Assembly (NCBI GenBank): GCA_965215565.1
Contig: CBDCDZ010000004.1
Span: 32,001-96,000 of the forward strand
Source: Trueperaceae bacterium
GTDB taxonomy: Bacteria > Deinococcota > Deinococci > Deinococcales > Trueperaceae
Length of the DNA stretch: 64,000 nt
Reading direction: 5' to 3'
In this document: piece by piece, positions 14,071 to 35,984 of the stretch
Position numbering within the stretch: the stretch's first letter is position 1
Layout of the letters: every line of letters begins with the position of its first letter
The notes under the pieces: generated by a model
Told to the model about the DNA's origin: nothing
The model's database searches: none
The model's input: only the letters and a program-made list of their open reading frames with translations
Position numbers and translations under genes: made by a program

Positions 14071-14133
14071 ACCTTATCTCAGACCGAGGGGTGCCGCGTG
14101 CACTCCTCAGAAACCCAACGACCTAACTCTTGA

Positions 14134-15022: not shown

Positions 15023-17915
15023 AACCAACGATGGAACCGTCACGGTAGAGGGTGCGGGTAAGAAAACTATCGCACTTTTTGTGGGCGAGCCAACGGACAT
15101 CCCCGCAATCACTCTTACCACTCCAGCGGACGGCGCAACCCTCTCGGGCGAGAGCGTGGACGTCTTCTGGGACATCACGCTCAAAGAGTCCGATGATCAC
15201 GTTCACGTCTATGTGGACGGCGAAAAGAGAGAGGGCTCGGTTGACTATAAAAACCCCTACACGCTCGACTTTGCGGATAAGAATATCGAACCGGGTCAGC
15301 ATGTGCTCGAGGTGCGCGTCTCAGATAAAGACCACAACGAATACACCAACCCAGCCGCCTCGGACAGCATTACCTTCACGCTCCAAGCGCCTACGTCGGT
15401 CAGCGACGTGCTCTACCGCGTGAACGCGGGCGGCCCTCAACTTGCTGCCAGCGATGATGGTCCAGACTGGGGTGCAGACACCGGTCAGTTCGGTAACGCG
15501 GGCAACAGCCCCTACCTCGTCGCCCATAGCACCGGTAGCTCGACCTATAATGGCAACTCGGGCAGCGCACATCCTGGCGCAATCGACACGTCCGACGCCA
15601 GCATCCCGACTGGTACGCCCACCGTGATATTTAATACCGAGCGCTACGATACAAGCGCAGCGCCGGAGATGCAGTGGGAATTTCCCGTCACCGCTGGAAC
15701 AACCATTGAGGTGCGCCTCTACTTCGCCGAACTCTTCAGCGGAGTGGACGCCGCCGGTGAGCGCGTCTTCGACGTCGAGGTTGAAGGAAGCGTCCCCTCC
15801 GTTTTCGGTGACATCGATCCTTTTGCTGTCGCCGGAGCTAAAGGTGCCTTTATACGCTCGCATACGCTTACGGTGACGGACGGAACTTTGGACATCGACT
15901 TCTTGCACGGCGTTGAAAACCCCGCCATCAAGGGCATTGAAATCATCGCCAGTAACGGCACTAGCAACGTGCCGCCGCAAGTCGATTCTATCGCTAACAT
16001 AACGAGCGCCGAAGGAGACGCGGCGAGCGACTACGACATCAGCATTGCAGCGACTGACCCGGACGGCCCTGGAAACCTCGAGTACAGCGCCACCGGACTG
16101 CCACCCGGCGTCGAGGTCGAGATGACGAACGGTCAACTCTTCGGGACGATTGCTGCGGGGGCCGCCGACAACAGCCCCTACGACGTGACGGTCAGCGTCA
16201 GCGACGGTGCGGACACCACGAGCGTCAACTTCACCTGGACGGTGACGGCGGAAACAGGTGGCGGCAACCCGTCCGCGACAATCAAGGTCACTTCGAATGC
16301 CGGTCTCTTCGCGAGCACCTTCGGCAACGACTCGTTCCAAATCAGCAACACGGGCGACAGCGACATCGAGCGCATCACCATCGACTCGAGCAGCACGTTC
16401 TTACCCGACGTCGTCTTCGACCCGGTGGGCAAAGCGGGCGACAGCGGCGCGAAGTGCCTCACAGCGGGTACAACGGGCAACACCGCCGCTCAGGTCGGTC
16501 TTATCTATCCGGCGAACGGCGGAAGCGACGCCGCTGACTGCGTCGATCCCTTCGATCAGCCTCATAACGGTACAAACGACGAGGAAGGCTACGACAAGCT
16601 CGACCTCATCTTTACGAACGGCGACGGCTTTAACCCCGGCGAGTCCTTCGCCTTCGGCGTGGACATGGACCCCACCAGCATCAAGGGCGACCAGAGCACG
16701 GGTGATGCGGGCTCCATATCCGGTTTTGAGCTGGTCGGTGCAACCGTGACGGTTGAATTTGCGGACGGTACGCTAACCTCGAGCCTCTGGGAAGACGGCA
16801 GTCTAGGCGGTTCGCAAGTGGTCGTCCAGCCCGGTGCGCCTACTGCGCCAAGTATCAGCGTGAGCGGTGTGTCGGCTCCCACTACAGTCACCGATGCAAA
16901 CCAGACCATCACCATCAGCGGTCCTGCGGACGCCACCGTCGCGCTGTTACGCGCTGACGCCCGTCTCTACATCGACGCAGGTGCACCAGGGGGCGGCACA
17001 GGCCATGACGTTGACCCCTTCGAAGCCAACGAAGTGCTCGCCAAAGAGGTCTACACCACGACGCTTGACGGCAGTGGTAGCGGCAGTATCAACGTCACGC
17101 TGACTCAAACCTCTTCGCTTAATGCTGGGCCCGACGCTGGAATCAACCACTTCATCGCGGTAGTCGAAGGGTCAGGAGAGCAGACCAGTCTGACCTCGAA
17201 CGTGATCGTTTTGGGCTACGCGCCAGATGACGGCGGTAATAGTGGCGGCGGGACAGGCTCGAGCGGCGCGTTTATTGAGCAAAACGGCCTCGTCGTCACC
17301 GAGATGGAATCCACCTCTAGCTTGCCTGGTAGTTGGAAGTCCGCCACTACCTATTCCGCCAGCACCTCGCCTGACATCAGTAATCTGGGCAGCGCGACGG
17401 GTGGAGACTTCATCGTTTGGCAGGGCGGACAGTTTTTGGGTAGTCCCGGCAATGGCTCGATTAGCTATCCAGTCAAGATCAATGCGCCGGGTACGTATAG
17501 GTTTCAGTGGCGTAGTCAGGTTGGTAACGGCTCAAACTCAACAGAGCACAACGACACCTGGCTTAAAATCGAGGCGGACAGCTTCTATGGTCAGAAGAAT
17601 TCAGGTATCGTCTGCCCGAAGGGTTACACTTCCGCCGAGAACGACTGCACCGGCAGCGTCCCCGAAGGTGGTGGTGGCGGCGGCTGGTTTAAGATTTATT
17701 CCAGTGGCACGGCGAACTGGACGTGGTCGACGAATACGAGCGACAACGACGCGCACCAAATCTTCGCTCGCTTCGACCAGGCAGGGGTATACAACATCCT
17801 CATTTCGGCTCGCTCTTCTTCGCATGTGATTGACCGCATGGTGCTCTACAATAGCTCCGTAAGTACGAGTGCAGCAACGAACATCAACAACCCCGAGTCA
17901 CCCCGCGAACAGTAA
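14145..17915 (+). CDS. About 1256-aa lipoprotein: cohesin-like, dockerin, Ig, malectin, He_PIG-like Ig and C-terminal beta-sandwich
   Basis: N-terminus is the same as 8206..14070 (true start ATG 14145 after AAGGAAGG). VLYRVNAGG..LYFAELF..RVFDVEVEG malectin; YSATGLPPG Ig. The STFGNDSF..DMDPTS domain is shared with the upstream paralog. Confidence 0.88.
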   Translation: MNRHLLFILSMSLLVLLAACGRGGPRGDYLAVAFEVPANTVALEADISYDPEQLELLGAASAHKGVLAAAGTDRGQLKLNAVATDLTPKGRDFALVSFKIKQPGAKPEVKLLRAYNAQKEELDTPRSSMRRTERDLAADYDPEAQAQRTLNPQADSSDLDLQASFADYPLGDLDQSSAVNVFDVIDVIAVSLGSASSATDYQLYVGDLTANGAVDLFDVISVVEKSVNVNAPASLVVRPDVLELATGESGLILVGNAGNLPLNATLSSSTDAAISKLNNEVAGQTAAYEVVAGTNDGTVTVEGAGKKTIALFVGEPTDIPAITLTTPADGATLSGESVDVFWDITLKESDDHVHVYVDGEKREGSVDYKNPYTLDFADKNIEPGQHVLEVRVSDKDHNEYTNPAASDSITFTLQAPTSVSDVLYRVNAGGPQLAASDDGPDWGADTGQFGNAGNSPYLVAHSTGSSTYNGNSGSAHPGAIDTSDASIPTGTPTVIFNTERYDTSAAPEMQWEFPVTAGTTIEVRLYFAELFSGVDAAGERVFDVEVEGSVPSVFGDIDPFAVAGAKGAFIRSHTLTVTDGTLDIDFLHGVENPAIKGIEIIASNGTSNVPPQVDSIANITSAEGDAASDYDISIAATDPDGPGNLEYSATGLPPGVEVEMTNGQLFGTIAAGAADNSPYDVTVSVSDGADTTSVNFTWTVTAETGGGNPSATIKVTSNAGLFASTFGNDSFQISNTGDSDIERITIDSSSTFLPDVVFDPVGKAGDSGAKCLTAGTTGNTAAQVGLIYPANGGSDAADCVDPFDQPHNGTNDEEGYDKLDLIFTNGDGFNPGESFAFGVDMDPTSIKGDQSTGDAGSISGFELVGATVTVEFADGTLTSSLWEDGSLGGSQVVVQPGAPTAPSISVSGVSAPTTVTDANQTITISGPADATVALLRADARLYIDAGAPGGGTGHDVDPFEANEVLAKEVYTTTLDGSGSGSINVTLTQTSSLNAGPDAGINHFIAVVEGSGEQTSLTSNVIVLGYAPDDGGNSGGGTGSSGAFIEQNGLVVTEMESTSSLPGSWKSATTYSASTSPDISNLGSATGGDFIVWQGGQFLGSPGNGSISYPVKINAPGTYRFQWRSQVGNGSNSTEHNDTWLKIEADSFYGQKNSGIVCPKGYTSAENDCTGSVPEGGGGGGWFKIYSSGTANWTWSTNTSDNDAHQIFARFDQAGVYNILISARSSSHVIDRMVLYNSSVSTSAATNINNPESPREQ

Positions 17916-17933
17916 AACGCCCCATAAACTCTT

Positions 17934-17968
17934 ACCTCTCTCCCCGTAAGGAGAGAGGTGTCTTTTTG
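17934..17968 (+). terminator. Intrinsic terminator of the lipoprotein operon
   Basis: ACCTCTCTCC-ccgtaa-GGAGAGAGGT followed by gtcttttt. Confidence 0.8.
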
Positions 17969-18329
17969 TACGCGGATGCAGGCTGTGACCTCTGCGCGTG
18001 AAGCGACTTTAGCAAACTATAGCAAGTATCATTTGGTTTGAGCCAGTCTCACATTAGAGAACTTGAGCGAACACGCGCATTCTTAAATGATGCTTGCGCT
18101 ATTCCAATTCAGTACTTCTGTGAACTGCTTTATTACACCAAACTGAAAGATTCACGTCACGTTCAATAGCTCACCGAGTTGCGAGATACCGAAGTGCCAC
18201 CAAGGGAAGTTAGTCATGAGTTCTGAGCGCTCTTTGTTGTTGGTGAATTGCTCGAGCGCTTGTCTGTGTCGAAGCGCCCGACAACTCGCAGAAGAGTTGT
18301 TTGGACAGTTCTGAAACCCTGAGCGAAGG

Positions 18330-18552
18330 GTGGCACCACCTCGCGGCGACCTATGACGGCAAGAGCCTGCGCGTCTACAAGAGCCTGCGCGTCTACGTCG
18401 ACGGAGAATTGAGCGGCGAGCGTGAGGTAGAGCCCACCGGCATTTCCTAGTGCGCCTTCGAGCTCTTTATCGGTACCGATTAGTATGCTCCTGAGCCTCT
18501 CTATACGGAGGGCGTCATTGACGAATTGCGGATTTACGACCAGGTGCCGAGC
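18330..18552 (+). pseudogene. LamG/ConA-like domain remnant
   Basis: WHHLAATYDGKSLRVY(KSLRVY)VDGEL..FIGTD*..GVIDELRIYDQ, with stops, a frameshift and an 18-nt tandem duplication. Confidence 0.8.
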
Positions 18553-19220: not shown

Positions 19221-20657
19221 CTAGCCCCTTAGAAGTTCTGCTAGATAGCGCGTCACGCCCAAGGCGAGGCTCGGAAAGATGCCAATGAGCAGGGTGCCTA
19301 AGACGCTCAGACTGAGCGAAATGACGTAGCTCGGTCGGTTGGGTAGACTCACCTTGACCTCGGGCTCTTTGAGGTACATCTCCACAACAGGCACAAGGTA
19401 GTAGTAGAGCGCTAGCGCGAAGTTTATTGCCGCGATGACAACGAGCCATACGAGCCCGTCCGAGAGCGTCGCTTCTAAAAGTAGCACCTTGCCCGCAAAA
19501 CCCGCTAGAGGTGGAACACCTGCGAGTGACAGCAACGATAGCGTGAGTGCAGCAGCGGCAAAGGGGGAGCGCTGCCCAAGCCCTCTCAGTCCATTGATGT
19601 GGTCGGTGCCGGTCAAGCGCTCTAACTGCGCCACCACCACGAACGCCCCCAAGTTCATAAAAAGGTACGCCGCTAAGTAGTAGCCCGTCGCGTCGAAGGC
19701 ACTCTCAACTCGCCCGGCAACGGCTACCGCCATCAGCACGTAGCCCGCTTGAGCGATGCTCGAGTACGCTAAGAGCTTCTTGAGCCGTGTCTGCCGCAAC
19801 GCTGCGAAATTCCCCAGGGTCATGGTTAGAGCCGCGAAAATAGCAACAGTGAGAGGCCACGCCGCCATACCATCTGGTAGAGCTAAGAGCAAAAAGCGCA
19901 GAAAGGCTGCGAATCCAGCGATCTTCGGTACGACGGAAAGAAAGCCCGCCACAGGCGCGGTCGTACCGCTGTACACATCAGGAGCCCAAAAGTGAAAAGG
20001 CACAATGGTGATTTCGAAGGCGTAGCCAATTAGGATCATGCCGAAGGCGACGGCAACCCAAAGCCTATCCGCACTACCTAAAGCCTGCCCAATAGTGCGC
20101 AGTTCCAAACTCCCCGTCAGCCCGTAGAGAAAGGTCAAGCCGTAGGCCATGACTGCCAATGCGACAGCGGCGTAGATGAAGTACTTGATGGTCGCCTCGT
20201 TCGTGCGGCGGTCTTTGCGGATGAGCGTCACAAGGATGTAGGACGCTAAGCTAAGCATCTGGAAGAAGAGGACGATGAGCCCCAGGTCGAGAGCTGAGCT
20301 AACCAGCATCGCTCCCAGGGTCGAGAAGAGCAGCGCAATGGCGGCGTGCCCCTCTTTGCCCGTATCGCGAAAATGTCCGTTGATGGCTAAAAGCGATAGG
20401 AACGAACCTAGTAAGATGAGCAACTTGAAAACGTTGCCGAAGCCGTCAAGTGCGTAGGTTTCACAGAAGACCGTCTGAGATTCCCAGGGAAGCATCCGCA
20501 CCGTAAACGCCATGGCTATTAAAAGCCCAAACGCCGCCACCCATACCGGGAGTTGCTGCCAACGTCCCTTTGCTAAGCCGGCGACGGGCACGAGCACCAA
20601 GCCTAACCCCGCTACGATAAGCTCGGGGATAATCGCCCACAGTTGAACGCAGCTCAC
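19221..20657 (-). CDS. nuoN: NuoN-like antiporter-type membrane subunit
   Basis: EATIKYF, VPFHFWAPDVY, KKLLAYSSIAQAGY and SLAGVPPLAGFAGK. Confidence 0.9.
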   Translation of the reverse strand: MSCVQLWAIIPELIVAGLGLVLVPVAGLAKGRWQQLPVWVAAFGLLIAMAFTVRMLPWESQTVFCETYALDGFGNVFKLLILLGSFLSLLAINGHFRDTGKEGHAAIALLFSTLGAMLVSSALDLGLIVLFFQMLSLASYILVTLIRKDRRTNEATIKYFIYAAVALAVMAYGLTFLYGLTGSLELRTIGQALGSADRLWVAVAFGMILIGYAFEITIVPFHFWAPDVYSGTTAPVAGFLSVVPKIAGFAAFLRFLLLALPDGMAAWPLTVAIFAALTMTLGNFAALRQTRLKKLLAYSSIAQAGYVLMAVAVAGRVESAFDATGYYLAAYLFMNLGAFVVVAQLERLTGTDHINGLRGLGQRSPFAAAALTLSLLSLAGVPPLAGFAGKVLLLEATLSDGLVWLVVIAAINFALALYYYLVPVVEMYLKEPEVKVSLPNRPSYVISLSLSVLGTLLIGIFPSLALGVTRYLAELLRG

Positions 20658-20658
20658 G

Positions 20659-22149
20659 CTAATCGCCCAGTTGCGCTAGGAACGCCGTCGCCCGCTCGAT
20701 GACGGCGAGAAACGGTCCCGGCACGATGCCGATGGCGAGCGAGAGGGCGGCTAAGGGGATGATGGAACTCGCCTCGAGCGGCTCCAACTCCCCCACCTCC
20801 GGCATATCTTCAGGCGGCTGTCCCATCAGCAAGAGGTTTAAGACCTTCAAATAGAGCCCCGTTGTGACGATGAGCCCAAACAAGGCGAGCACCGCCAACC
20901 ACGGGCTCACCGCGAGCGTCGCGCCTAAAACTTGAAACTCCGCGACGAAGCCTGACAGAGCAGGCAACCCGAGCGAGCCGAACGCCAAGAGCCCCAACAG
21001 TCCGCTGTAAAGAGGTGCACGTCCTAAGAGCCCGCCGAACCGCGCCATCTCCCGCGTGCCGGTGTGATGCTGGAGTACGCCCGCGAGAAAGAACATCCCG
21101 CCCGTCAAGAGCCCGTGGCTGACCATCTGCAAGACCGCACCATTGAGGGCGAGTTGCTTCACGCCTGTGTCAGAAGAGAGCCCCCATACCGCTACACCTA
21201 ACATCACGTAGCCCATGTGATTGACCGACGTATAGGCGATGAGCCGCTTGAGGTCGCGCTGCGGCAAAGCGGCGAGCGCACCGTAGACGAGTGACACGAG
21301 CGCCAAGACCATCAAGAGCCAAGCGTACTCTTGCACTACTCCCGGCAGCGTCGGGATGAGCACACGCAAGAGACCATACGCGCCCATCTTGAGCTGAATC
21401 CCGGCTAGCATCACGCTCCCCTCGGTAGGCGCTTCGACGTGGGCGTCAGGGAGCCAGTTGTGTAGAGGCACGGTGGGTAGCTTGACGCCGAAACCGAGGA
21501 GCAACCCTAAGAGCACCCAGAAGCCCGCCGCCTGCCCTACAAAAGGTTGCGCGGCTGTAATCGCTGATAGCGAAAAGCTGCGCGTCCCTACCGAATCGCC
21601 CGTCGCGAGGTAGAGCGCCAAGAAGCTCAGCAACATCGCCAAACTGCCTGCACGGGTATAGAGAAAGAACTTCAAGGCGGCGTAGCGGCGGTTCTCGCCG
21701 CCCCAGATGCCGACGATAAAGTACATCGGCACGAGCCCGACCTCGAAGAAGAGGTAGAAGAGCAGGAGGTCTTGCGCAGCGAAGAGTCCTAAAAGACCCG
21801 TCGCCATCAGCAAAAACAAGAAGGCGTGCTCTTTCGCCCGTTCGCGTTTGGGGAGGACGTAGAGCATCGAGAGGCTGAGTAAAAGTGCGGTCAGGACGAT
21901 GAGGGGCAGTGAAAGCCCGTCCACCGCCACGTCGTAGCTCGAGCCAATACTAGGAATCCAATCCGCGACGGTGCGCCACTGCAAGCGTGAACCTGTCGGA
22001 TCATAGCCGCCCCATAAAATGAGCGTAAAGAGCAGCGTGAGAAGCGAGCCTGCGAGGGCAGCGTAACGGATGAGCTTGGCTTGCGCGTTCGGTATAACCA
22101 GCAGGGCGAGCCCCACGGCAAGCGGTAAAAAGATCGTAATACTTAACAT
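20659..22149 (-). CDS. nuoM: NuoM-like antiporter-type membrane subunit
   Basis: FFEVGLVPMY, AALKFFLYT, KLPTVPLHNWLPDAHVEAPT, LKMGAYG and GFVAEF. Confidence 0.93.
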   Translation of the reverse strand: MLSITIFLPLAVGLALLVIPNAQAKLIRYAALAGSLLTLLFTLILWGGYDPTGSRLQWRTVADWIPSIGSSYDVAVDGLSLPLIVLTALLLSLSMLYVLPKRERAKEHAFLFLLMATGLLGLFAAQDLLLFYLFFEVGLVPMYFIVGIWGGENRRYAALKFFLYTRAGSLAMLLSFLALYLATGDSVGTRSFSLSAITAAQPFVGQAAGFWVLLGLLLGFGVKLPTVPLHNWLPDAHVEAPTEGSVMLAGIQLKMGAYGLLRVLIPTLPGVVQEYAWLLMVLALVSLVYGALAALPQRDLKRLIAYTSVNHMGYVMLGVAVWGLSSDTGVKQLALNGAVLQMVSHGLLTGGMFFLAGVLQHHTGTREMARFGGLLGRAPLYSGLLGLLAFGSLGLPALSGFVAEFQVLGATLAVSPWLAVLALFGLIVTTGLYLKVLNLLLMGQPPEDMPEVGELEPLEASSIIPLAALSLAIGIVPGPFLAVIERATAFLAQLGD

Positions 22150-22168
22150 AGAACTCCTAACACAGCGT

Positions 22169-24112
22169 TCAGAACCATAAAAGCGCCCCGGCGAGGATGA
22201 CTGCGCCTGTCCAGATAAAGAGGATCAAGGTGTAAATGTAGAGCTTGCCACTCTGCGCCGCGCGTAAGTACTCGCTCGAGCGCCCTAACAGGCGGGCGAA
22301 GGCGTCGCCCCCTCTTGAGAAACCGACACGTTCCGCTTGGTCGGTGCGGTTGGCTAAGTTGAGTGTTAGTGTCGCCCCTGCCCGAGCGCTCTTGTCGAAG
22401 ATTGTCTCGAGCCCGTCCAACGCTCGCCCGCTACGTTGAGCCGTATCAGCAAGGTGGCGTACAGCAATGTCGAACCCCTGCTCGGCAGCATCAACCGCTG
22501 AAGCGATTCGCTCAGCAGCGAGAGCGGGAGCCCGCGTCACCCGCTCTAATCCTTCTGCGAGCGAAACAGGACCCGTCCCAAAGGTCGGCACGGGTCCAGC
22601 CTGCCATACGCGCCACGCGCCTAGCATCAACCCCGCGAAGCTCGCCGCAACCGCCCAAAGCGTCCAAGCGGCGGACACGTGCGGCGCACCTTCAAAGGGC
22701 AAAAAGGCTTCTAACCGCCCCGAAAGCGCCCATCCCAGTCCAAGCGCAAAAAGTGCCGTCGTGAGCATCCCTGCCTTCATGCGCCAGCCGACCTCTTCCG
22801 CAGTAACCTCATAGGTGTCCTGAGTCGTATCCCGCCACGCCGCAAACGACGCCATCCCCGCGCGGCTGATGTAGACGCCCGCTAGAAAGATGAGGAACAC
22901 GAGCAGTGCGCCGAGGAAGGGGCTAGCAGAAGCAGCTTGAGCTAAAATTGCCTCTTCACTCCAAAAAGCTGAAAAGGGGGGTAAACCCGCCAGCGTGAGC
23001 GCCGCCGCGCCGAACGCGAAGGTCGTATAGGGCAACTGCCGAAACAAGCCGCCCATCTTGCGTAAGTCGTAGCTGCCGACCGCGTGCCCTACCGCGCCTG
23101 CTGCCAGAAAGAGTGTCGCCTTAAATGCCGCGTGCGTGGTGAGGTGAAAGGCTGCGGCGGTTGCGCCGCTCACGCCCAGCGCCAGCATCATCTCACCGAG
23201 TTGCGAGACCGTAGACCACGCCAAAACGCGCTTGAGGTCGGTCTCAGTGGTGGCGATAAGGGCGGCGATGAGGGCGGTGAGCACCCCTACTATTAGGATG
23301 ACGGTGAGTGCCCCCGGCGCAGCCTCGAAAAGCGGGAAGAGCCGGAGCAAGAGGTACACGCCCGCTGCAACCATCGTCGCAGAGTGAATGAGCGCCGAGA
23401 CGGGCGTCGGTCCCGCCATTGCGTCAGGGAGCCAGGCGGTAAGGGGAAGTTGGGCGCTTTTACCGAGTGCGCCTAGCAGCAAGAGGAGGGCGGTAGCGGT
23501 TAAAAAGCTGTCGGGAAGGGTCCCCACCGCACCTAGAATCGCGCCGATGTCGGTGGTGCCTAGCTCGAGCAATAGCCACAACCACCCGAGCAAGAGCCCC
23601 AAGTCTCCTATCCGCGTCATCAAAAACGCCTTACGCGCCGCCTTGCGGGAGTCCTCTTTGCTGTACCAAAAGCCGATGAGCCCATACGACGCCAGCCCGA
23701 CCCCCTCCCACGCGGCGAAGAGCAGCACAAGCGAACCGCTCAGCACGAGCGTCAGCATCGTGCCGACGAAAAAGGATAAGAGGGCAAAGAAGCGAGGTTT
23801 GCTCTTCTCTTCAGCCATATAGCCCACCACGTACACGCCAACGAGAAAACTCACGCTCGAGACCACGAGCGCCAAGAGGTATGAGAGCGGGTCTAGGGTT
23901 AAACCGGCGGTGAGGGTGAAGGAGCCGGTCTCGAGCCATGTACCACTCACGCTCAACCTTTGTCCAGTCAAAATGAGGATGAGTAGAAGGCTCAAGCCAC
24001 TTGCACCCGCGCTTAGCCACGCACCTTTCGTGGGGAGCTTAGAGCCGAAGAACAGGATGACGAACGCTGCAAAGAGAGGTGCAAACGGCACGGCAAAGAG
24101 AAGCACGCTCAT
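22169..24112 (-). CDS. nuoL: NuoL-like antiporter-type membrane subunit with a long C-terminal amphipathic helix
   Basis: WEGVGLASYGLIGFW, KSAQLPLTAWLPDAMAGPTPVSALIHSATMV and QSGKLYIY. Start ATG 24112 overlaps the nuoK stop (ATGA). Confidence 0.93.
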   Translation of the reverse strand: MSVLLFAVPFAPLFAAFVILFFGSKLPTKGAWLSAGASGLSLLLILILTGQRLSVSGTWLETGSFTLTAGLTLDPLSYLLALVVSSVSFLVGVYVVGYMAEEKSKPRFFALLSFFVGTMLTLVLSGSLVLLFAAWEGVGLASYGLIGFWYSKEDSRKAARKAFLMTRIGDLGLLLGWLWLLLELGTTDIGAILGAVGTLPDSFLTATALLLLLGALGKSAQLPLTAWLPDAMAGPTPVSALIHSATMVAAGVYLLLRLFPLFEAAPGALTVILIVGVLTALIAALIATTETDLKRVLAWSTVSQLGEMMLALGVSGATAAAFHLTTHAAFKATLFLAAGAVGHAVGSYDLRKMGGLFRQLPYTTFAFGAAALTLAGLPPFSAFWSEEAILAQAASASPFLGALLVFLIFLAGVYISRAGMASFAAWRDTTQDTYEVTAEEVGWRMKAGMLTTALFALGLGWALSGRLEAFLPFEGAPHVSAAWTLWAVAASFAGLMLGAWRVWQAGPVPTFGTGPVSLAEGLERVTRAPALAAERIASAVDAAEQGFDIAVRHLADTAQRSGRALDGLETIFDKSARAGATLTLNLANRTDQAERVGFSRGGDAFARLLGRSSEYLRAAQSGKLYIYTLILFIWTGAVILAGALLWF

Positions 24113-24420
24113 CCTTTCAGCTCCGTGAACTGGTCCACTTGCTGCGTACCCTGGTTGCGGTAGAGCAGCATCATGATGGCGAGTCCGATTGCCATCTCGA
24201 CCGCGCCCAGCGTCACGATGATGATGAGGAAAATTTGCGCCGAGTAGTCGCCGGGCTGCACGAAGCGCCAAAACGCGACGATGTTGAGCCCGATGGCGTT
24301 AAGCAAAACTTCGATGCCCATGAGGATCATCACCGCCGAGCGTTGCGCGACGACGGCGTAGATGCCGATGCCGAAGAGGATGGCGGCGACAACTAAAAAG
24401 GCGCTGAGGGGGATGATCAT
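24109..24420 (-). CDS. nuoK: NuoK-like subunit
   Basis: GIEVLLNA and GAVEMAIGLA retain both conserved glutamates. Confidence 0.92.
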   Translation of the reverse strand: MIIPLSAFLVVAAILFGIGIYAVVAQRSAVMILMGIEVLLNAIGLNIVAFWRFVQPGDYSAQIFLIIIVTLGAVEMAIGLAIMMLLYRNQGTQQVDQFTELKG

Positions 24421-25307
24421 TCGGAGACCTCTTTACTCGAGCTTTCTGCTCCCATCAAAGGGACTAACCTGTCATCCTCAAGCTCCGTAGGGTTTTCATC
24501 CAGCCCCACATACGCCTCGCGGTTTTTAGGTGAGGGGTGGCAGTCAGGTCGGGCGATATAAACCGCGCCGAAGATGCCCACTAGAATAAGCAACCCTGCC
24601 CCTTCGAACGCCATCATGTACTTACCCATCAATAAGCTACCGATTTCGCGTGCCGAGTCGGGGTTGGGCGTCGCATCTACAACAGGCCAAGCGGGGCGGA
24701 AAAGGAGAAGTCCGACGAGCAACACTGACACCGCGATGCCCAATGCGGCGGCGTAAGGACGCACCGGCGTGACCATCGACATATCCATATCCCCGTGGTC
24801 CATGTCGCCGTGATCCATCTCGCTATGGTCCATCTCCCCGTCGTCCATATCATTGTGCGCATCTTCGTTTTCACTATCACTACCACTACTTTCGGCATGA
24901 CTCATCTCATGATGTTGATGTTCATCTTGTTCCTGGTCTTCACCGAGCGACTTCACCTCCTCTGCTTGGACCTCTTCTTTATCTTTAGGCAGTAACCCCA
25001 AACTGAAGAACTTCTCAACAAGAGGCAAATCCATCCCCGCCATCATGTCCCCGCCGGGGTCGTGCGAGAAGAGCGCCATGAAGAGGATCATCACCAGCAT
25101 CCCGCCGATGTACATCATCACTTGGAGGAGCCCTAAGAGGTCCGCCGATAAGAGGATGAAGAGCCCCGACACGCCGATAAAGGAGCCCATCAGGAAGATG
25201 CCACTCCTATACATGCTCATCGTCGTCGCCATGCCGAGTGCACCCAGAATCGCGATGAGCGACAACAGGGTGAAGGCTAAAATCTGTGCAAGAGGTCCTA
25301 AAATCAT
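24417..25307 (-). CDS. nuoJ: NuoJ-like subunit with a large acidic His/Met-rich insertion
   Basis: LQVMMYIGGMLVMILF (TM3) and IGSLLMGKYMMAFEGAGLLILVGIFGA. Insert EHQHHEMSH..MDHSEMDHGDMDHGDMDMSM. Confidence 0.88.
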   Translation of the reverse strand: MILGPLAQILAFTLLSLIAILGALGMATTMSMYRSGIFLMGSFIGVSGLFILLSADLLGLLQVMMYIGGMLVMILFMALFSHDPGGDMMAGMDLPLVEKFFSLGLLPKDKEEVQAEEVKSLGEDQEQDEHQHHEMSHAESSGSDSENEDAHNDMDDGEMDHSEMDHGDMDHGDMDMSMVTPVRPYAAALGIAVSVLLVGLLLFRPAWPVVDATPNPDSAREIGSLLMGKYMMAFEGAGLLILVGIFGAVYIARPDCHPSPKNREAYVGLDENPTELEDDRLVPLMGAESSSKEVSE

Positions 25308-25320
25308 GCTTTCGTCTCCA

Positions 25321-26220
25321 TCATTGCCCTACCCCTAAAAGAATGAGCGCCCCGACGATGAGCACGTTGACCAAGCCGACGGGCGTCAGAATGCGCCAGG
25401 AGAGCTTGAGCATCTGCGCGGTAGAAAGAGGTTGCACACGCCGCCCGAGCCAGAGCATGAACGCCATCAGGCCAAACGTTTTGAGGAGCATCCACACAGG
25501 TGCGGGGAGCCACGGTCCGTGCCAGCCGCCCAGGTAGAGCACCGCGCCCATCGCCGCGACGACGAAGAGCAGCCCCGCCAAAGAGAGCCGCCATATAAAC
25601 GCCTGCCAGCCGCCGACGACGCCTAAGACGCCGTAGTTAAGGTGGCTCGAGAACGGCTCTAAAAAGGGCGCACGGTACGCCTGCATGAGCCCTGTGATGA
25701 CGTAGAGCGCAAAGCCGATAGGCTGCACGACGATGTACCAGATACCTGCTTGATTTTCCACGATAGTGTTCAGCGAGAGCGACCGCGCCATCATGATCGC
25801 GCCCACATACGCGAGCCCGAGCGGGATGACGTAGGAAACGAGCTGCGCGGTGATGCGGTAGTACACGTCCACCGCGTCCCGCACGTTCGCGCCCCAGCCT
25901 GCGATGGCGACACCCAGCACGACGAAGTCCACCACGACGATGAAGTAGAACGCACCGACGCCTATATCCTCCGCGACGAGGTTCGGACCGAACGGGATGA
26001 TGATCGCGGCGGCAGCGACGCCGAACAGCGCCGAGACTGCGCCCGCCGGGTAAAGCCAGCGGTCTTCGCGTAAGAGTTTGATGTCTCTCTCAGCCGGGGG
26101 CGCAGCAGCAGGACCGACCTCTTGCGCGGGGCGGAGCATGACGCGCTCCAAGACCATCGTAAGGACTGCGCCGATAGCGAGGACGCTGAAGGTGAAGAGC
26201 GTGCCCGTCAGTACGCCCAT
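25321..26220 (-). CDS. nuoH: NuoH-like subunit, divergent
   Basis: 8-TM pattern; AQLVSYVIPLGL, SLSLNTIVENQ, VLYLGGW and QMLKLSWRILTP. Start set to ATG 26220. Confidence 0.85.
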   Translation of the reverse strand: MGVLTGTLFTFSVLAIGAVLTMVLERVMLRPAQEVGPAAAPPAERDIKLLREDRWLYPAGAVSALFGVAAAAIIIPFGPNLVAEDIGVGAFYFIVVVDFVVLGVAIAGWGANVRDAVDVYYRITAQLVSYVIPLGLAYVGAIMMARSLSLNTIVENQAGIWYIVVQPIGFALYVITGLMQAYRAPFLEPFSSHLNYGVLGVVGGWQAFIWRLSLAGLLFVVAAMGAVLYLGGWHGPWLPAPVWMLLKTFGLMAFMLWLGRRVQPLSTAQMLKLSWRILTPVGLVNVLIVGALILLGVGQ

Positions 26221-26239
26221 GATTCTACTTCCACAGTAG

Positions 26240-26557
26240 CTACTCCCACTCGAGCCCCCCCATCCCCCAAGCGTAGGCAATGCCAGCTGAGAGAATCGCG
26301 ATAAAGACGAACATGTCCAAAAATGCCGTTAAGCCTTCCTCGGCAAAGACTACCGCCCAGGGATACATGAAGATCATCTCCATATCGAAGGACAGAAAGA
26401 TGAGCGCGTAGATGACGTAGCCGAAGCGGTACGACCCCCACGCGCTAGGCGCTTTAATCAAAGTTGCTTTAGGTCGCCAATAGGCTGCACCTAGAAGTGC
26501 CAAACCAACCACGACCAGTGCGACCAAGCCGACCACGGCGTAACTGCTTAGAATCAT
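26240..26557 (-). CDS. nuoA: NuoA-like subunit, divergent
   Basis: YALIFLSFDMEMIFMYPWAVVF..YAWGMGGLEWE. Confidence 0.88.
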   Translation of the reverse strand: MILSSYAVVGLVALVVVGLALLGAAYWRPKATLIKAPSAWGSYRFGYVIYALIFLSFDMEMIFMYPWAVVFAEEGLTAFLDMFVFIAILSAGIAYAWGMGGLEWE

Positions 26558-26716
26558 CTGAATCCCCTCGAGTCTCAGAACGCGATAAGTACACCTATAT
26601 TTCCCACCCCAGGTGGGGTGGAACCCGCTTCGTTATACCGATTAGGATTTCCGCACGTCAAGTGTCGTAGCTTGCAGTTTTCGTGGCTCGAGCCCCTCAT
26701 ACGTGTGGACTCGACC

Positions 26717-26956
26717 TCACTGCAAATCGCGCCTCAAGGACTCGTACTGCTCCTTGTCTATTTCGCCCTTGGCGTAGCGGCGCTTGGCGACCTCGAGCGC
26801 GTCTATTTGCTCGACGCTTCCCCCATGACTCTGCGGAAACATTAGCCTGACGAGCCACACCACTAAAAGGGCGACCAGAACGAGGAATACGAGCGACCCG
26901 AGCCACCCGAAGCCCATCCAGCCATCCATCATGCCTGTGCCGTTCATCATGTTCAT
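26717..26956 (-). CDS. SHOCT-domain membrane protein with Met-rich N-terminus
   Basis: MNMMNGTGMMDGWMG, one TM and ALEVAKRRYAKGEIDKEQY; AAGGAGG RBS. Confidence 0.88.
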   Translation of the reverse strand: MNMMNGTGMMDGWMGFGWLGSLVFLVLVALLVVWLVRLMFPQSHGGSVEQIDALEVAKRRYAKGEIDKEQYESLRRDLQ

Positions 26957-27011: not shown

Positions 27012-28163
27012 TCAAGCGTCGCGGGTGGGCAACGTGAACCAGAAGCAGCTTCCCTCACCTGGGGTGCTCTCCGCCCCGATGCGCCCCCCTTGCCGCTGTA
27101 CGTAATGCTTAGCAATCGTCAAGCCGATGCCGCTATTGCTGCCGCCACGTGCTTTATCGGCGCGGTAGAACCGGGTAAAGAGGTGCGGCAAATCTTGCGC
27201 AGCAATACCCTCGCCCGTGTCTGTCACCTTAAAACACACCCCTTTATGCTCCAACGTCGCGCTGAGGCGCACCTCACCCCCGGATGGCGTGTGGCGCAAG
27301 GCGTTGTCGATGAGGTTCGCCAGCACTTGAGCGCTACGTGTCGGGTCGGCACGTACCGTGAGCGCGTCGGGGACATTTTGCGTCGTCAACGTCACCCCCT
27401 TCTGGTCAAACTGCGGGCGAAAGGCGGCTCTCTGTTGCTCGAGGAGACTTCCAACTTGAACCTCGTGCACATTCAACTCGTCCTGTCCACTTTCGACTTT
27501 AGAGAGTAGGGAAATATCCCCGACTAGCCGTTCTAAACGGTTCACCTGTTTCTGGCAGGCGGCTAAGGTCTCAGCGTCCGCTTCGAAGAGCCCGTCCTCC
27601 AAACCTTCCAAGTAGCCGTGCAAGCTGCTCAGTGGCGTCTTGAACTCGTGCGCGACGTTGTTGAGGAGTTCGACGCGGCGCTGCTCGGTCTGTTCCAAGG
27701 AGCCCGCCATCTCGTTGAACGCGCCCGCTAGCGCCCCGATTTCACCCGGATAGTTCGTGCTGAGCCGCTCGTGATACCGCCCCGAGGCGACGCGGCTACT
27801 GGCAGTTTTCATCTTGCGTAGAGGCGAGACGATGAACCAAGTGACGATGAGGCTGACCACGCCCGCGATGATGACCGAGCCGATGATGCCCCAGCGCATC
27901 GCCTGTTCAGCGGCTTCGCGGTAGGAGCGGCGCAAATCGGTCTCCATCGCCACAATTTCAGGGCGTGAGGTGTCGGTCAGCGTGCCGAGTTGCGCCATCA
28001 TGGTCTCGATGTGTTGCTCGAACAAAAGCGGCGCGAACGCCTCGCTCGCCAAGAAAAAGGTCAGGCAGCAAGTCGCGACGACCAAGAGGTAGGAGATGAG
28101 CAATCGCCCGTAGAGGTCGAGGTCGCGCCACTTCAAGCCCCTTATGAAACTAGGTCCTCTCAC
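27012..28163 (-). CDS. HAMP-domain sensor histidine kinase
   Basis: Two TMs, HAMP, H-box VAHEFKTPL, NLIDNALRHT, DTGEGI and GIGLTI. Confidence 0.95.
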   Translation of the reverse strand: MRGPSFIRGLKWRDLDLYGRLLISYLLVVATCCLTFFLASEAFAPLLFEQHIETMMAQLGTLTDTSRPEIVAMETDLRRSYREAAEQAMRWGIIGSVIIAGVVSLIVTWFIVSPLRKMKTASSRVASGRYHERLSTNYPGEIGALAGAFNEMAGSLEQTEQRRVELLNNVAHEFKTPLSSLHGYLEGLEDGLFEADAETLAACQKQVNRLERLVGDISLLSKVESGQDELNVHEVQVGSLLEQQRAAFRPQFDQKGVTLTTQNVPDALTVRADPTRSAQVLANLIDNALRHTPSGGEVRLSATLEHKGVCFKVTDTGEGIAAQDLPHLFTRFYRADKARGGSNSGIGLTIAKHYVQRQGGRIGAESTPGEGSCFWFTLPTRDA

Positions 28164-28864
28164 GGTGTGTCCTCGCTGAATTTATAGCCTACGCCGCGCA
28201 CGGTGAGCAAGTAGGTCGGGCGGTTGGGGCTCTGCTCGAGCTTCTGCCGCAAGTTCGAGACGTGCACGTCCACCACGCGGTCCACGCCTAAAAAATTCTC
28301 ACCCCACACGCGGCTCAAGAGGTCGTTGCGGCGAAAGACGCGCCCCGGCTGCGAAGCGAGCGTCACCAAGAGGTCAAATTCTAAGGTGGTCAGCTCGAGC
28401 GGGTTTCCGTCTAAACGCGCAGTGCGTTTGTCTAGGTCGACTTCTAACGCACCTTGTCGAATGGTCTGACGCACGTCCGCCGACGCTTCACCCCGCCGTA
28501 ACACCGCCTGCACACGGGCGACGAGTTCGCGCGGGGAGAAGGGTTTGGGCACGTAGTCGTCCACACCCGCCGCGAAGCCCGCCAATCGGTCCGGCTCTTC
28601 TCCTTTGGCGGTGAGCATGATGACCGGCGTGGGACGCTCTAAACGCAACCTCTTGAGAAATTCCAACCCGTCCAGATGCGGCAACATCCAGTCCAACACG
28701 ACGAGGCGCGGAGAGAGGGTGAGGGCTTTCTCGAGCCCACTTACCCCATCGGTTGCCACCTCGACGGCGTAACCTTCGCGTCCTAAGTAAGCTTGGACAA
28801 TTTTAACGATGTCGGGGTCATCCTCGACAATGAGGATAGGTGCGGCCTTATTCAAAGGGCTCAT
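28160..28864 (-). CDS. OmpR/PhoB-family response regulator
   Basis: IVEDD, LDWMLP, KPFSPREL, VDVHVSNLRQK and TVRGVGYKF. Confidence 0.96.
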   Translation of the reverse strand: MSPLNKAAPILIVEDDPDIVKIVQAYLGREGYAVEVATDGVSGLEKALTLSPRLVVLDWMLPHLDGLEFLKRLRLERPTPVIMLTAKGEEPDRLAGFAAGVDDYVPKPFSPRELVARVQAVLRRGEASADVRQTIRQGALEVDLDKRTARLDGNPLELTTLEFDLLVTLASQPGRVFRRNDLLSRVWGENFLGVDRVVDVHVSNLRQKLEQSPNRPTYLLTVRGVGYKFSEDTP

Positions 28865-29439
28865 CCCTCTATTATTGCCCTAAACTGCTGCCAGCGGCGT
28901 TGGAGTTGTTCTCTCAAGAGGTAGAGGATAAGCAGTGCGTCTAGCGTCAGCTCGAAGACGAAGAACTGCCGTCCGAAGTGCGCAGGGTCCCAGTAGGAAA
29001 TGGGGCTCGAGAAGCGAAGCGACCAGTCGAAGGGAAAGAGCAACAAGGGTCCGTCGCTATTGTGTGTGAGGATGTCGATGAGAGTATGCAAGGCGGCAGC
29101 CGCGAAAAACCAGAAGAGCCAACGCTGGACGGTGTTCTGAGTATGACGGTAGCGCCAGAGGAGCGCGAGCCCTACACCTAAAATGATCGGCGCGTGCAGG
29201 AAGTTGTGCGGGATGATCCAGTAAGGGCTGGTGTAGAAGAGCGTCTCCGCCATCCACTCGTGCGCCTCGCTCAAGTTTTCGCCTTGCAGCCACGTGTAGA
29301 GCGTCGTGCCCGACATTAGAAGGTAAATGGGAATATCGGGCACAACCGAACCGACCAAAACCGCCCAGAGCGGTAGCTCAATCTTGCGCTGCCGCTTAGC
29401 GAGCGCCGCTGTGATGATGAGGTGAGAGGGCGTGGTCAT
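28861..29439 (-). CDS. Membrane metal-dependent hydrolase-like protein (YdjM-like)
   Basis: MTTPSH, GSVVPD, HNFLH and LHTLIDILTH His motifs with TM segments. Confidence 0.7.
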   Translation of the reverse strand: MTTPSHLIITAALAKRQRKIELPLWAVLVGSVVPDIPIYLLMSGTTLYTWLQGENLSEAHEWMAETLFYTSPYWIIPHNFLHAPIILGVGLALLWRYRHTQNTVQRWLFWFFAAAALHTLIDILTHNSDGPLLLFPFDWSLRFSSPISYWDPAHFGRQFFVFELTLDALLILYLLREQLQRRWQQFRAIIEG

Positions 29440-29451
29440 AGGAGGATGAGG

Positions 29452-29988
29452 CTAGTGGTTGTCGATACCCTCAAACGCCTCCAAGAACGCCCGCATCTCG
29501 GTTTCATTCACCTCTTCGAAGGTCTGCTTGCGCTGCCAGGCGGTAAGGGCATAAGGGGTTTCTAGATCTTGGCGCGGCGCGATAACGGTGCGGCGGTAGC
29601 CCTGGGCGACCTCCTCGAGCCGCTCGATATTGGCTAAATTCTCCTCGTGCGTGCCCATCTTGTACCAAAGGATGACGCCGCCGTCCTCCATGTTGTGCAG
29701 CAAAACCTCGTCCGGGACGACGTAGTCGTAAGAGCCCCAGTCAGCCAAATAGCCGACGTGCCAGCCCGAGGTGGGTGGGTTGCTGTTGTAGGCGGGATGG
29801 TCAGCCGAAGTGTCGGCGATGTGCGTGTTGCCCTGGTCGGCGAAGCGTTCACCAGGCAAGTCGGCGCTTTGCACTCGGTTCATCACGATGAAGCCGACGA
29901 TTAAGAGCACGACACCTCCTGTGATGAGTCCCATGATGAGGTTGAGTCGGTTGTTTGCTGAATTGCGCCTCGTTTGTCTTGTTGCCAT
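29452..29988 (-). CDS. DUF3105-family membrane-anchored protein
   Basis: YNSNPPTSGWH, LLHNMEDGGVILWY and ALTAW. Confidence 0.85.
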   Translation of the reverse strand: MATRQTRRNSANNRLNLIMGLITGGVVLLIVGFIVMNRVQSADLPGERFADQGNTHIADTSADHPAYNSNPPTSGWHVGYLADWGSYDYVVPDEVLLHNMEDGGVILWYKMGTHEENLANIERLEEVAQGYRRTVIAPRQDLETPYALTAWQRKQTFEEVNETEMRAFLEAFEGIDNH

Positions 29989-30072
29989 AAGGGTCCTTCC
30001 TCTTTCGGTGTACGCTGCCTAAACTGTTTAGAAGCAAGGGTGAAGCGTGTCACGTACGCTCTGAAGTATCTC

Positions 30073-30105
30073 AGCGTAGCAGCGGAGTGTAAAGCCCTTA
30101 TAAAG
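30073..30105 (-). promoter_or_regulatory. Putative OmpR-family tandem box plus -10 (copy 2), upstream of the DUF3105-hydrolase-RR-HK operon
   Basis: Minus strand CTTTATA-aggg-CTTTACA-N9-TACGCT. Confidence 0.65.
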
Positions 30106-30171
30106 CTCGAGAGTTTCTGCCCGTTGAGGTGTAGGAGCAGGTATAGTTCTTTTAGAGAGGGAGGTGGGTCG

Positions 30172-35717: not shown

Positions 35718-35984
35718 ATGATGGGTAATGGTATGGAATTCGGTATGGGCTTTGGGGGCTTGTGGATGCTCCTCTTACTGATTTTAGCGGTTGTTTTGAT
35801 CGTCTGGCTAGTTCGGTCGGCGGGATCACGGCATACGAGCGCGTCACAAAGCCAAAGTGCAGAGCGTGAGAGCGCGGTAGAGGTTGCCGAGCGGCGCTAC
35901 GCCAGTGGCGAGATCAGCCAGGAAGCGTTGCCCGAGATGGGCAGCCTGAACCGCGAGTCGCCTGGCGCAACATCGTCAATGTGA
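35718..35984 (+). CDS. SHOCT-domain membrane protein, C-terminus apparently replaced by a deletion fusion
   Basis: MMGNGMEFGMG, TM and AVEVAERRYASGEISQE, then an unrelated tail. Confidence 0.75.
   Translation: MMGNGMEFGMGFGGLWMLLLLILAVVLIVWLVRSAGSRHTSASQSQSAERESAVEVAERRYASGEISQEALPEMGSLNRESPGATSSM

Follow-up and report, generated by a model that had tools for sequence, protein, structure and literature searches.

An arm-only nuoAHJKLMN cassette with a methionine-lined proximal end, a candidate proton-driven copper exporter

We describe a gene cassette in a 64 kb stretch of DNA (the window; G000:C4:32001-96000) from the 4.49 Mb genome of a Trueperaceae bacterium of the Deinococcota. At 19221-26557, on the minus strand, the window carries seven tightly packed open genes that are homologues of nuoA, nuoH, nuoJ and nuoK and of nuoL, nuoM and nuoN of respiratory complex I, with none of nuoB, nuoC, nuoD, nuoE, nuoF, nuoG or nuoI. 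The protein sequences indicate that the cassette family has lost the interface with the quinone module (Q-module) of complex I. The cassette is horizontally spread and is conserved as a unit across phyla and plasmids. It is likely to work without a Q-module, and we are similarly confident that its function concerns copper or soft metals. The more specific proposal, to which we give about an even chance, is that the cassette is a stand-alone, Mrp-like exporter of Cu(I), and possibly also of Ag(I), driven by the proton-motive force. Slightly more tentative is the idea that the E-channel has been rebuilt as a methionine-lined metal path, and that the cassette represents a new class of metal efflux system found across at least eight phyla by way of plasmids and islands.

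A preliminary description of the window, made from the sequence without database searches, had proposed a stand-alone membrane complex repurposed as an ion pump or antiporter, probably acting in metal (copper) or envelope stress. The first proposal is supported by the loss of Q-module loops and by the conservation of the cassette as a unit, and is strengthened because the loops lost are specifically those that contact the Q-module. The link to metal (copper) stress is likewise strengthened, by a His/Met-rich insertion in NuoJ, by the methionine lining of the proximal subunits, and by copper or heavy-metal neighbours in 18 of 29 related loci. The novelty of the arrangement had been overstated, given that a seven-gene cassette of this kind has been in print since 2012 (PMC3314556) and was reported within a copper operon in 2021 (PMC8233155). 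The gene arrangement is therefore already published; the residue-level changes described below are absent from the accessible text of these two accounts.

Gene set and reading frames

Each of the seven genes matched a complex I family in Pfam (Table 1), which rules out chance open reading frames (ORFs), and none of the seven proteins matched a cofactor-binding family in Pfam. The genes are separated by 19 nucleotides (nt) between nuoA and nuoH, 13 nt between nuoH and nuoJ, 19 nt between nuoL and nuoM and 1 nt between nuoM and nuoN, and overlap by 4 nt at both the nuoJ-nuoK and the nuoK-nuoL boundaries; the cassette contains no additional gene. The nuoH start was taken to be an ATG, the longest reading beginning at a TTG at position 26280, and the nuoL start was taken to be the ATG that overlaps the nuoK stop codon, the longest reading beginning at 24271.

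The ORFs and Pfam matches bear out the earlier account of seven coupled genes in canonical order, the gaps of 19 nt (nuoA-nuoH) and 13 nt (nuoH-nuoJ) were read at the same values, and all seven frames are, as claimed, open in the window. That neighbouring genes of the island are broken was also correct, as seen from the fragments of a multicopper oxidase and of transposase or integrase genes.

Apparent loss of the docking face in NuoH, NuoA and NuoJ

The first 52 residues of the island NuoH did not align to residues 1-78 of Escherichia coli NuoH, which comprise transmembrane helix (TM) 1 and the TM1-2 loop, and the Gln/Arg/Gly-Pro-Asn motif found in this loop in housekeeping NuoH rows is deleted. 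In an alignment to the E. coli protein (7nyh_H; E. coli numbering), E157 is replaced by Val, D213 by Leu, E216 by Phe, E218 by Ser, E228 by Gly and Y229 by Gly, and the position aligned to E220 is also replaced; R209, P211 and F212 are kept. We take E157, the TM1-2 loop motif and the acidic residues of TM5-6 to be the quinone and coupling elements of NuoH. An AlphaFold2 model of the island NuoH (predicted local distance difference test score 79.6, predicted TM-score 0.85) had E. coli NuoH as its best match in the PDB (7z7v_H, TM-score 0.87), and the top 50 matches were all NuoH, ND1 or NdhA chains. The least confident regions of the model are the TM1-2 and TM5-6 loops. As judged from this model, the NuoH/ND1 fold is kept.

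The TM1-2 loop of NuoA is 11 residues shorter than that of the housekeeping NuoA and the canonical loop motif is absent, but the Asp/Glu pair of TM2 is kept, flanked by family-specific methionines at positions 59, 61 and 64. NuoJ carries a large insertion (Table 1) that, judged by the canonical topology of ND6, falls in the TM3-4 loop. An insertion was present in every full-length copy read, at lengths of 44-207 residues, and the inserts from intact frames contain no Cys. The ends of the insertion are Met-rich and conserved, and enclose a variable middle that is rich in His, Met and Asp, with 'MDH'-type repeats; TM3 of NuoJ is itself Met-rich. In solved complex I structures the homologous TMH3-4 loop of ND6 is described at the hinge under the peripheral arm (PMC9699679), so the NuoJ insertion would be expected to lie on the vacated docking face.

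The equivalog models of NCBIfam separated the subunits of the cassette. NuoA, NuoH and NuoJ missed all cut-offs by a wide margin: the best NuoA score was 58.8 bits (cut-off 163), NuoJ scored 69.7 bits (cut-off 174), and NuoH scored 128.5 bits (cut-off 399), with every NuoH equivalog at or below 128.5 bits against cut-offs of at least 305. NuoK, NuoL, NuoM and NuoN each passed one model, at 81.6 bits for NuoK (NF004320, cut-off 57), 440.7 bits for NuoL (TIGR01974, cut-off 407.5), 495.7 bits for NuoM (TIGR01972, cut-off 263.8) and 336.5 bits for NuoN (TIGR01770, cut-off 332.6).

Antiporter-like subunits and methionine lining

The canonical Glu/Lys/Lys/Glu set is complete in NuoM, where all of E. 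coli E144, K234, K265 and E407 were matched in an alignment to 7p61_M. NuoL keeps the TM5 Glu, the TM7 Lys and the TM8 His, and the TM12 Lys has become Glu (25 Glu and one Asp in 26 rows), a change also seen against 6hum_F and 8e9g_L. The C-terminal extension of NuoL is kept, with positions 4-605 of the 615 in profile NF005141 covered. In NuoN, the Lys residues of TM8 and TM12 are kept, and the TM5 Glu is replaced by Gln and the TM7 Lys by Glu in all 26 rows, which was confirmed against NdhB (6hum_B). Both canonical transmembrane Glu residues of NuoK are kept, adjoined by extra conserved methionines.

Methionine is concentrated in the proximal subunits. We defined a family-specific Met column as one with at least 80% Met in the island rows (17-29 rows) and less than 30% in the canonical rows (8-9 rows); six such columns were found in NuoA, six in NuoH, 17 in NuoJ and three in NuoK, compared with none in NuoL, two in NuoM and two in NuoN. 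Because the proximal subunits are the more divergent ones, Met was also counted, as a control, among all family-specific conserved columns. It was the commonest residue in NuoA, NuoH, NuoJ and NuoK (32 of 196 columns) and accounted for 4 of 200 columns in NuoL, NuoM and NuoN. This corresponds to an odds ratio of 9.6 and a Fisher p of 3e-7, a value that makes the contrast look too strong, the rows being related and the columns not independent, and that serves as a guide only. With the NuoA start codon left out, 24 of 31 family-specific methionines lie in hydrophobic stretches, and many adjoin the conserved carboxylates of NuoA and NuoK or run along TM3 of NuoJ.

Distribution and descent of the cassette

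When genomes were scanned for the pattern, with each species represented once, 74 candidate stretches were obtained, 29 of which encode a relative that is 50-72% identical in NuoH. Over the part that is present on the contig, the order A-H-J-K-L-M-N was found in 29 of 29 of these loci; contig ends cut L016, L019 and L023. A tblastn search with the B, C, D, E, F and I subunits of the host gave no match within 10 kb in 28 of the 29 loci. In the exception, L033 from a Bacteroidota metagenome-assembled genome (MAG), the cassette (9693-16788) lies directly behind a housekeeping nuo operon, G-H-I-J-K-L-M-N (109-8914), on the same strand.

The carriers of the 29 loci span at least eight phyla and include Leptolyngbyales, Trueperaceae, Chloroflexaceae, Chloroflexia, Actinomycetota, Alphaproteobacteria, Acetobacteraceae, Rhodanobacteraceae, a deltaproteobacterium, Ignavibacteriota and Bacteroidota; cassettes occur in MAGs from soil, freshwater and biofilms, among other sources. 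Plasmid-borne cassettes (n=3) were found in Methylobacterium fujisawaense (NZ_CP155007.1), M. aquaticum (NZ_AP014705.1) and Rhodopseudomonas sp. BAL398 (pBAL398.3). Deinococcus marmoris and D. saxicola have two copies each, and one further Deinococcus copy is on a plasmid. Two copies in Actinomycetota MAGs (L027 and L038) are 61-65% identical in NuoH. Within the Deinococcota the cassette is rare, with 10 of 301 genomes as carriers, including that of the window and one broken copy; G251, an unpublished genome among the 301, has no copy. No cassette was found in other Gammaproteobacteria (0 of 399 scored genomes, 400 having been sampled) or in other Actinomycetota (0 of 400 sampled genomes), and seven actinobacterial matches at 32-37% identity are of a more distant type. 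When NuoH was searched against 1.84 billion protein representatives, 18 were found at E <=1e-30. Seven shorter NuoH-like proteins (P0006, P0007, P0009, P0010, P0017, P0018 and P0024; 308-318 amino acids (aa), 35-43% identity) show a partial loss of both the loop motif of TM1-2 and the acidic residues of TM5-6, and may represent sister clades of the arm-only cassettes.

In the host, the housekeeping operon is complete (nuoA-N) and lies at C4:2.68 Mb, 2.6 Mb from the island locus. It contains the only NuoD of the genome, and the housekeeping NuoH is 29% identical to that of the island. A second B/C/D/I set for the cassette was not found in the host genome. The preliminary description had named two alternatives to a stand-alone complex, namely that the closest homologues sit in complete nuo operons and that cognate nuoBCDI genes elsewhere in the genome co-evolve and co-purify with these subunits. 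Both checks spoke for the stand-alone complex. The closest homologues proved not to lie in complete operons, given that B, C, D and I are absent between the cassette genes in 29 of 29 loci, and the sole NuoD of the host belongs to the housekeeping operon with the 29% identical NuoH.

A tree of the cassette against housekeeping nuo genes, as had been suggested, was made for NuoM by maximum likelihood, with canonical rows from the same hosts or phyla and with rows of less than 85% coverage or with internal stops omitted. The island copies form their own group, the 24 island rows being split from the eight canonical rows with a support of 94/91 and in each of 200 bootstrap trees. From one phylum to another, paths are several-fold shorter for the island copies (0.69, window to Chloroflexaceae) than for the canonical ones (3.6-4.25), and the nearest cassette copies by NuoM are those of Trueperaceae MAGs. 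A recent deletion from a full nuo operon is ruled out by the gene order conserved in 29 of 29 loci and by the separate island NuoM group.

At least one cassette gene is in pieces in eight of the 29 loci (L022, L026, L033, L037, L038, L041, L043 and L044). The sister species G206 (locus L045 on G206:C1) has the same eleven-gene layout at approximately 90% DNA identity. In this locus, within 9729-10951, nuoA is frameshifted into two frames and nuoH has four stops; nuoK to nuoN are open and 95-99% identical. The broken genes of L045 and of the eight loci reflect either decay or indel errors of assembly.

Gene context of the related loci

Pfam families were assigned to the ORFs in the flanks of the 29 loci, with one representative per cluster. 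At least one copper or heavy-metal family was present in the flanks of 18 loci. These families are DUF305, DUF326, HMA, HMBD, YHS, the CsoR-type repressor, CopC-CopD, multicopper oxidase (CopA) with CopB, an HMA-bearing P-type ATPase, and CusB/CusA-like pumps of the resistance-nodulation-division (RND) type. In L040 the gene order is copA-copB, cassette, cusCBA-like; on pBAL398.3, a DUF305 gene lies directly upstream of the cassette, accompanied by CusA/CzcA, metal repressors and a two-component system. A two-component system likewise borders the cassette of the window and of several Deinococcota copies, and pairs of kinase and regulator genes adjoin the cassette in L017, L020/21, L026, L045, L047, L049 and L051.

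Some loci have further features of their own. In six loci from Ignavibacteriota and Bacteroidota (L031, L034, L037, L041, L043 and L044), the cassette is part of a larger conserved block, in which it is preceded by genes for an RND pump, an HMBD protein, a 696-aa CcmF-like protein, a YHS protein, a SHOCT protein and, as an optional member, an Old Yellow Enzyme (OYE) flavoprotein, and followed by genes for a cytochrome c and an 800-aa GNAT-domain protein. In L022, from a Chloroflexia MAG, a gene of the MbnB/TglH/ChrH family (DUF692) lies directly after nuoN (17714-18517); MbnB makes the copper-chelating peptide methanobactin. On the Deinococcus plasmid of L026, a bacteriorhodopsin-like gene (6561-7277) is located 2.4 kb upstream of the cassette, beside a DUF305 gene and the two-component system.

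The island around the cassette in the window

Upstream of the cassette, in the same orientation and with hardly any spacing, are five genes that encode a DUF3105 protein, a YdjM-like protein, a response regulator, a histidine kinase and a SHOCT protein (Table 1). Other loci likewise have SHOCT genes close to the cassette, and the order of the YdjM-like and DUF3105 genes is also kept in the sister-species locus. The two-component system matches the heavy-metal subfamilies TIGR01386 and TIGR01387 of NCBIfam, both below cut-off. Between the SHOCT gene and nuoA we read a candidate promoter and a GC-rich hairpin; the hairpin, which would belong to the nuoA leader, has a stem that the sister species preserves despite a 6-nt insertion in the loop. 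Scans for consensus promoters and terminators gave nothing above shuffled sequence and did not flag this promoter-like stretch, and an alignment of the DNA upstream of nuoA with that of a Trueperaceae copy gave no common motif.

The preliminary description had listed SHOCT, two-component, DUF3105, cytochrome c, ccmF and multicopper oxidase genes as neighbours. The first four were recognized by Pfam. A ccmF gene was not found in the window, either by Pfam on ORFs of at least 60 aa and on the stop-to-stop frames of the gaps, or by a tblastn search with CcmF-like proteins encoded next to the cassette elsewhere. The multicopper oxidase is present, but as a fragment only, comprising the last ~48 codons within a 79-codon open frame. 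This fragment and the second SHOCT-like ORF are remnants of copper genes.

Table 1. Features of the cassette and its surroundings, in window coordinates
Feature	Position	Strand	Details
nuoN-like	19221-20657	-	478 aa; Pfam Proton_antipo_M
nuoM-like	20659-22149	-	496 aa; Pfam Proton_antipo_M
nuoL-like	22169-24112	-	647 aa; Pfam PF00361 (Proton_antipo_M) and PF00662 (Proton_antipo_N)
nuoK-like	24109-24420	-	103 aa; Pfam PF00420 (Oxidored_q2)
nuoJ-like	24417-25307	-	296 aa; Pfam PF00499 (Oxidored_q3) in two stretches
NuoJ TM3-4 loop insertion	24774-25061	-	approximately residues 83-178; rich in His, Met and Asp, Cys-free
nuoH-like	25321-26220	-	299 aa; Pfam PF00146 (NADHdh), 131.8 bits, profile positions 62-297 only
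nuoA-like	26240-26557	-	105 aa; Pfam PF00507 (Oxidored_q4), E 2.5e-20, profile positions 32-99 only
Candidate promoter TTGACG-18-TATAAC, then GC-rich hairpin	26601-26661	-	read from the sequence; ~45 nt before the nuoA start
SHOCT small membrane protein, Met-rich N-terminus	26717-26956	-	Pfam PF09851, E 2.3e-7; directly upstream of the cassette
HAMP/HisKA histidine kinase	27012-28163	-	Pfam
OmpR-type regulator	28160-28864	-	Pfam; 4-nt overlaps in the two-component system
YdjM-like membrane protein	28861-29439	-	Pfam; collinear with the two-component genes
DUF3105 protein	29452-29988	-	Pfam; collinear with the YdjM-like gene
Two c-type cytochromes	33705-34124, 34174-35067	-	Pfam PF13442, PF00034; the second with tetratricopeptide (TPR) repeats
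Second SHOCT-like small ORF	35718-35984	+	clusters with SHOCT ORFs
Multicopper-oxidase C-terminal fragment	35870-36106	+	Cu-oxidase_2, E 2.4e-10, profile positions 88-134 of 137
Transposase/integrase fragments	178-837, 4515-5051, 44622-44963		Pfam scan of window ORFs

Three further groups of genes were observed in the window. One, at 36144-41946, is a sulfur-handling block. Its Sulf_transp gene, of the YeeE/YedE type, is broken into two ORFs (36144-36743 and 36753-37238), and the other members encode a SulP/STAS permease, a fusion of a metallo-beta-lactamase with a rhodanese, and a regulator of the LysR type. The opposite strand just downstream of the cassette (5873-17915) encodes three very large secreted-type proteins of 751, 1954 and 1261 aa, in which PKD, Ig-like and malectin domains were recognized. 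The region 29974-33669, divergent from the DUF3105 gene, encodes a 1231-aa superfamily-1 helicase (AAA_11/AAA_12) with a C-terminal PLD-like nuclease domain.

Proposed function and alternatives

In the mechanism that we propose, the seven proteins would, by homology, assemble like the membrane arm of complex I. Protons would flow inward through the canonical NuoM, and also through NuoL and NuoN, as in Mrp antiporters, and this flux would drive a soft metal outward along a path through NuoA, NuoH, NuoJ and NuoK that is lined by thioethers and carboxylates. The metal path would include the junction of NuoN, NuoK and NuoJ, the site at which cation and proton are coupled in Mrp. The metal would be collected by the NuoJ loop, presumably on the cytoplasmic face, at the position that in complex I receives the peripheral arm, and in the window the adjacent two-component system and SHOCT protein may switch the cassette on under metal stress.

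Several observations weigh against a copper exporter. No metal gene was present in the flanks covered of 11 of the 29 loci (L018, L019, L022, L025, L030, L032, L033, L035, L036, L038 and L042), two of which are short contigs, and the count of 18 loci with metal genes is a raw one, uncorrected for the frequency of such genes in any 20-kb stretch. The genes in pieces in eight of the 29 loci and in the sister species suggest that the cassette is dispensable. Cytoplasmic Cu(I) is usually bound by Cys sites, and Cys-free Met/His loops are more typical of periplasmic proteins; the cytoplasmic side assigned to the NuoJ loop may therefore be wrong. NuoD is present in 26 of 27 cassette genomes, so the use of a host peripheral arm remains compatible with gene content, and the only cassette genome without NuoD (G323) is a 2.7-Mb MAG of unknown completeness and no proof of independence. 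In addition, the accessible literature ties the actinomycete copies to marine or saline habitats and not to copper (PMC3314556, PMC6676996, PMC6002675, PMC8622039).

This last association would fit an Mrp-type antiporter that exchanges a monovalent cation (Na+ or K+) for H+ in the service of salt or pH homeostasis, and in which copper has no direct part. The partial operon is reported as enriched in marine Salinispora, Streptomyces and Kocuria (PMC3314556, PMC6676996, PMC6002675, PMC8622039), every component common to Mrp and complex I (L, M/N, K and J) is present in the cassette, a Na_H_Exchanger gene lies downstream of the cassette in L035, and the TM7 Glu of NuoN could serve a hard cation too. 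However, neither the 32 family-specific methionines of NuoA, NuoH, NuoJ and NuoK nor the His/Met-rich NuoJ loop would be expected of such an antiporter, and the copper or heavy-metal neighbours of 18 of 29 loci, the occurrence of cassettes on Methylobacterium plasmids and in MAGs from soil, freshwater and biofilms, and the reported co-expression of the Marinobacter cassette with cop genes (PMC8233155) also count against it; we regard it as unlikely. Copper would have a different role if the cassette were an ion pump or energy converter with a non-canonical partner, for example one fed by periplasmic copper redox reactions through c-type cytochromes or a multicopper oxidase. Copper redox reactions have been suggested as an energy source for the Marinobacter cassette (PMC8233155), a cytochrome c gene follows nuoN in eight related loci and two cytochromes are present in the island of the window, and an OYE-type flavoprotein gene precedes nuoA in four loci. 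Yet no partner is common to all 29 loci, the commonest flank families occurring in at most eight, the seven proteins have no matches to cofactor-binding families, and the quinone-site loops are lost, which makes a redox partner a rather improbable explanation.

The cassette might instead provide an alternative membrane arm that docks the NuoBCDI-EFG of the host, as a second isoform of complex I for copper or other stress. Cyanobacteria swap paralogues of NdhD and NdhF, almost all cassette genomes have NuoD elsewhere, the cassette of L033 follows a housekeeping nuo operon directly, and the NuoH fold is kept together with R209, P211 and F212. The elements that have changed, however, are precisely the contacts with the Q-module (the TM1-2 and TM5-6 loops of NuoH, the TM1-2 loop of NuoA and the TM3-4 loop of NuoJ), and no second B/C/D/I set was found in the host genome. 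Moreover, the cassette is 50-72% identical across phyla while the complex I of its hosts is far more diverged, and a docking arm would thus need to fit many different peripheral arms. We consider such docking very unlikely. The least probable of the explanations, with scarcely any likelihood in our view, is a non-functional and decaying leftover of a transferred or deleted operon: neighbouring island genes are indeed fragments, nuoA and nuoH are broken in the sister species and eight of 29 loci have a gene in pieces, but all seven genes are open in the window, the family has hundreds of conserved columns of its own, including the 196 and 200 family-specific ones, and the gene order is kept across at least eight phyla.

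If the proposed proton-driven Cu(I) exporter is real, bacteria have converted the half of complex I that pumps protons into a device for metal efflux, which would be a sixth kind of copper export beside P-type ATPases, RND pumps, cation diffusion facilitators (CDF), CopCD and Cop/Pco. It would also offer the complex I field a small, natural, stand-alone membrane arm with the transported metal as a handle. The coupling between the NuoH/NuoJ/NuoK end and the antiporter-like subunits far from it has long been debated, and could here be studied without a peripheral arm. Annotation of the plasmids by the Prokaryotic Genome Annotation Pipeline (PGAP) names the cassette genes as ordinary Nuo subunits; were the proposal correct, this naming would inflate inventories of respiratory chains and hide a plasmid-borne determinant of metal resistance.

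Comparison with known systems

Cassettes of this composition have been described before. Penn and Jensen (2012) reported a seven-gene 'NDH-1 partial 2' operon in Salinispora, encoding the membranous part of the complex, which was horizontally acquired and has relatives in several phyla (PMC3314556). A partial nuo operon in Streptomyces and Kocuria has been counted among 'marine adaptation genes' (PMC6676996, PMC6002675, PMC8622039). In Marinobacter atlanticus, Bird et al. (2021) found seven nuo-like genes, ACP86_11540-11570, inside a copper-resistance operon, with which they were co-upregulated, and proposed that the cassette gains energy from copper redox reactions (PMC8233155). The accessible text of these accounts contains no residue-level analysis and no biochemistry (PMC3314556, PMC6676996, PMC6002675, PMC8622039, PMC8233155), and no paper of the library searched, which leaves out approximately 1.7 million PubMed Central articles and subscription journals, joined copper, NuoJ and methionine-rich; nor did that library yield accounts of such cassettes beyond those cited here. 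The published nuoAHJKLMN cassettes resemble the present one in their seven genes, the absence of peripheral-arm genes and a patchy horizontal spread, in a divergent NuoJ or NuoH that is often annotated as hypothetical and, in Marinobacter, in the copper operon (PMC8233155); the likeness to the Salinispora, Streptomyces, Kocuria and Marinobacter copies rests on published descriptions and not on sequences.

With the membrane arm of complex I (NDH-1) the cassette shares all seven subunits in canonical order, the NuoH fold, the Glu pair of NuoK, the four key charges of NuoM and the C-terminal extension of NuoL. Its antiporter-like subunits taken together give a mixed picture: NuoL, NuoM and NuoN pass the TIGR cut-offs for NDH-1, and the charges are fully canonical in NuoM, canonical except at TM12 in NuoL, and altered at TM5 and TM7 in NuoN. 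It differs in having no NuoB, NuoC, NuoD, NuoI, NuoE, NuoF or NuoG, in the loss or replacement of the coupling loops of NuoH, NuoA and NuoJ, in the methionine lining of the proximal subunits, and in the Gln and Glu of NuoN and the TM12 Glu of NuoL. The MBH, MBX and Ehr complexes and the group-4 hydrogenase-type complexes similarly reuse membrane modules of Mrp and complex I. These complexes retain NuoB/C/D/I-like subunits, whereas the cassette keeps none.

Thioether-rich sites and Cys-free repeats of the M-D-H type are also features of methionine-based Cu(I)/Ag(I) proteins, such as CusA/CusF, the Met/His repeats of CopA/PcoA and CopB, and Ctr1. These proteins have no homology to the cassette, and their fold and energy coupling are wholly unlike it.

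The Mrp antiporters (Mnh/Pha), which need no redox input to work, have in common with the cassette antiporter-like subunits of the same kind, a homologue of NuoK and a domain resembling NuoJ. Steiner and Sazanov (2020) placed the binding of the cation in Mrp, and its coupling to the proton, at a junction where the NuoJ-like domain and the NuoK homologue meet the TM5 Glu of the antiporter-like subunit next to them (PMC7419157), and it is at this type of junction that the NuoN changes of the cassette fall. Mrp has MrpE, MrpF and MrpG and a NuoJ-like domain fused in MrpA, and is without NuoH and NuoA, whereas the cassette shows the reverse; the cassette has three antiporter-like subunits and Mrp two, and none of the NCBIfam models for Mrp comes near its cut-off. 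Finally, in contrast to the Na+ or K+ of Mrp, the Met and His features of the cassette point to a soft metal.

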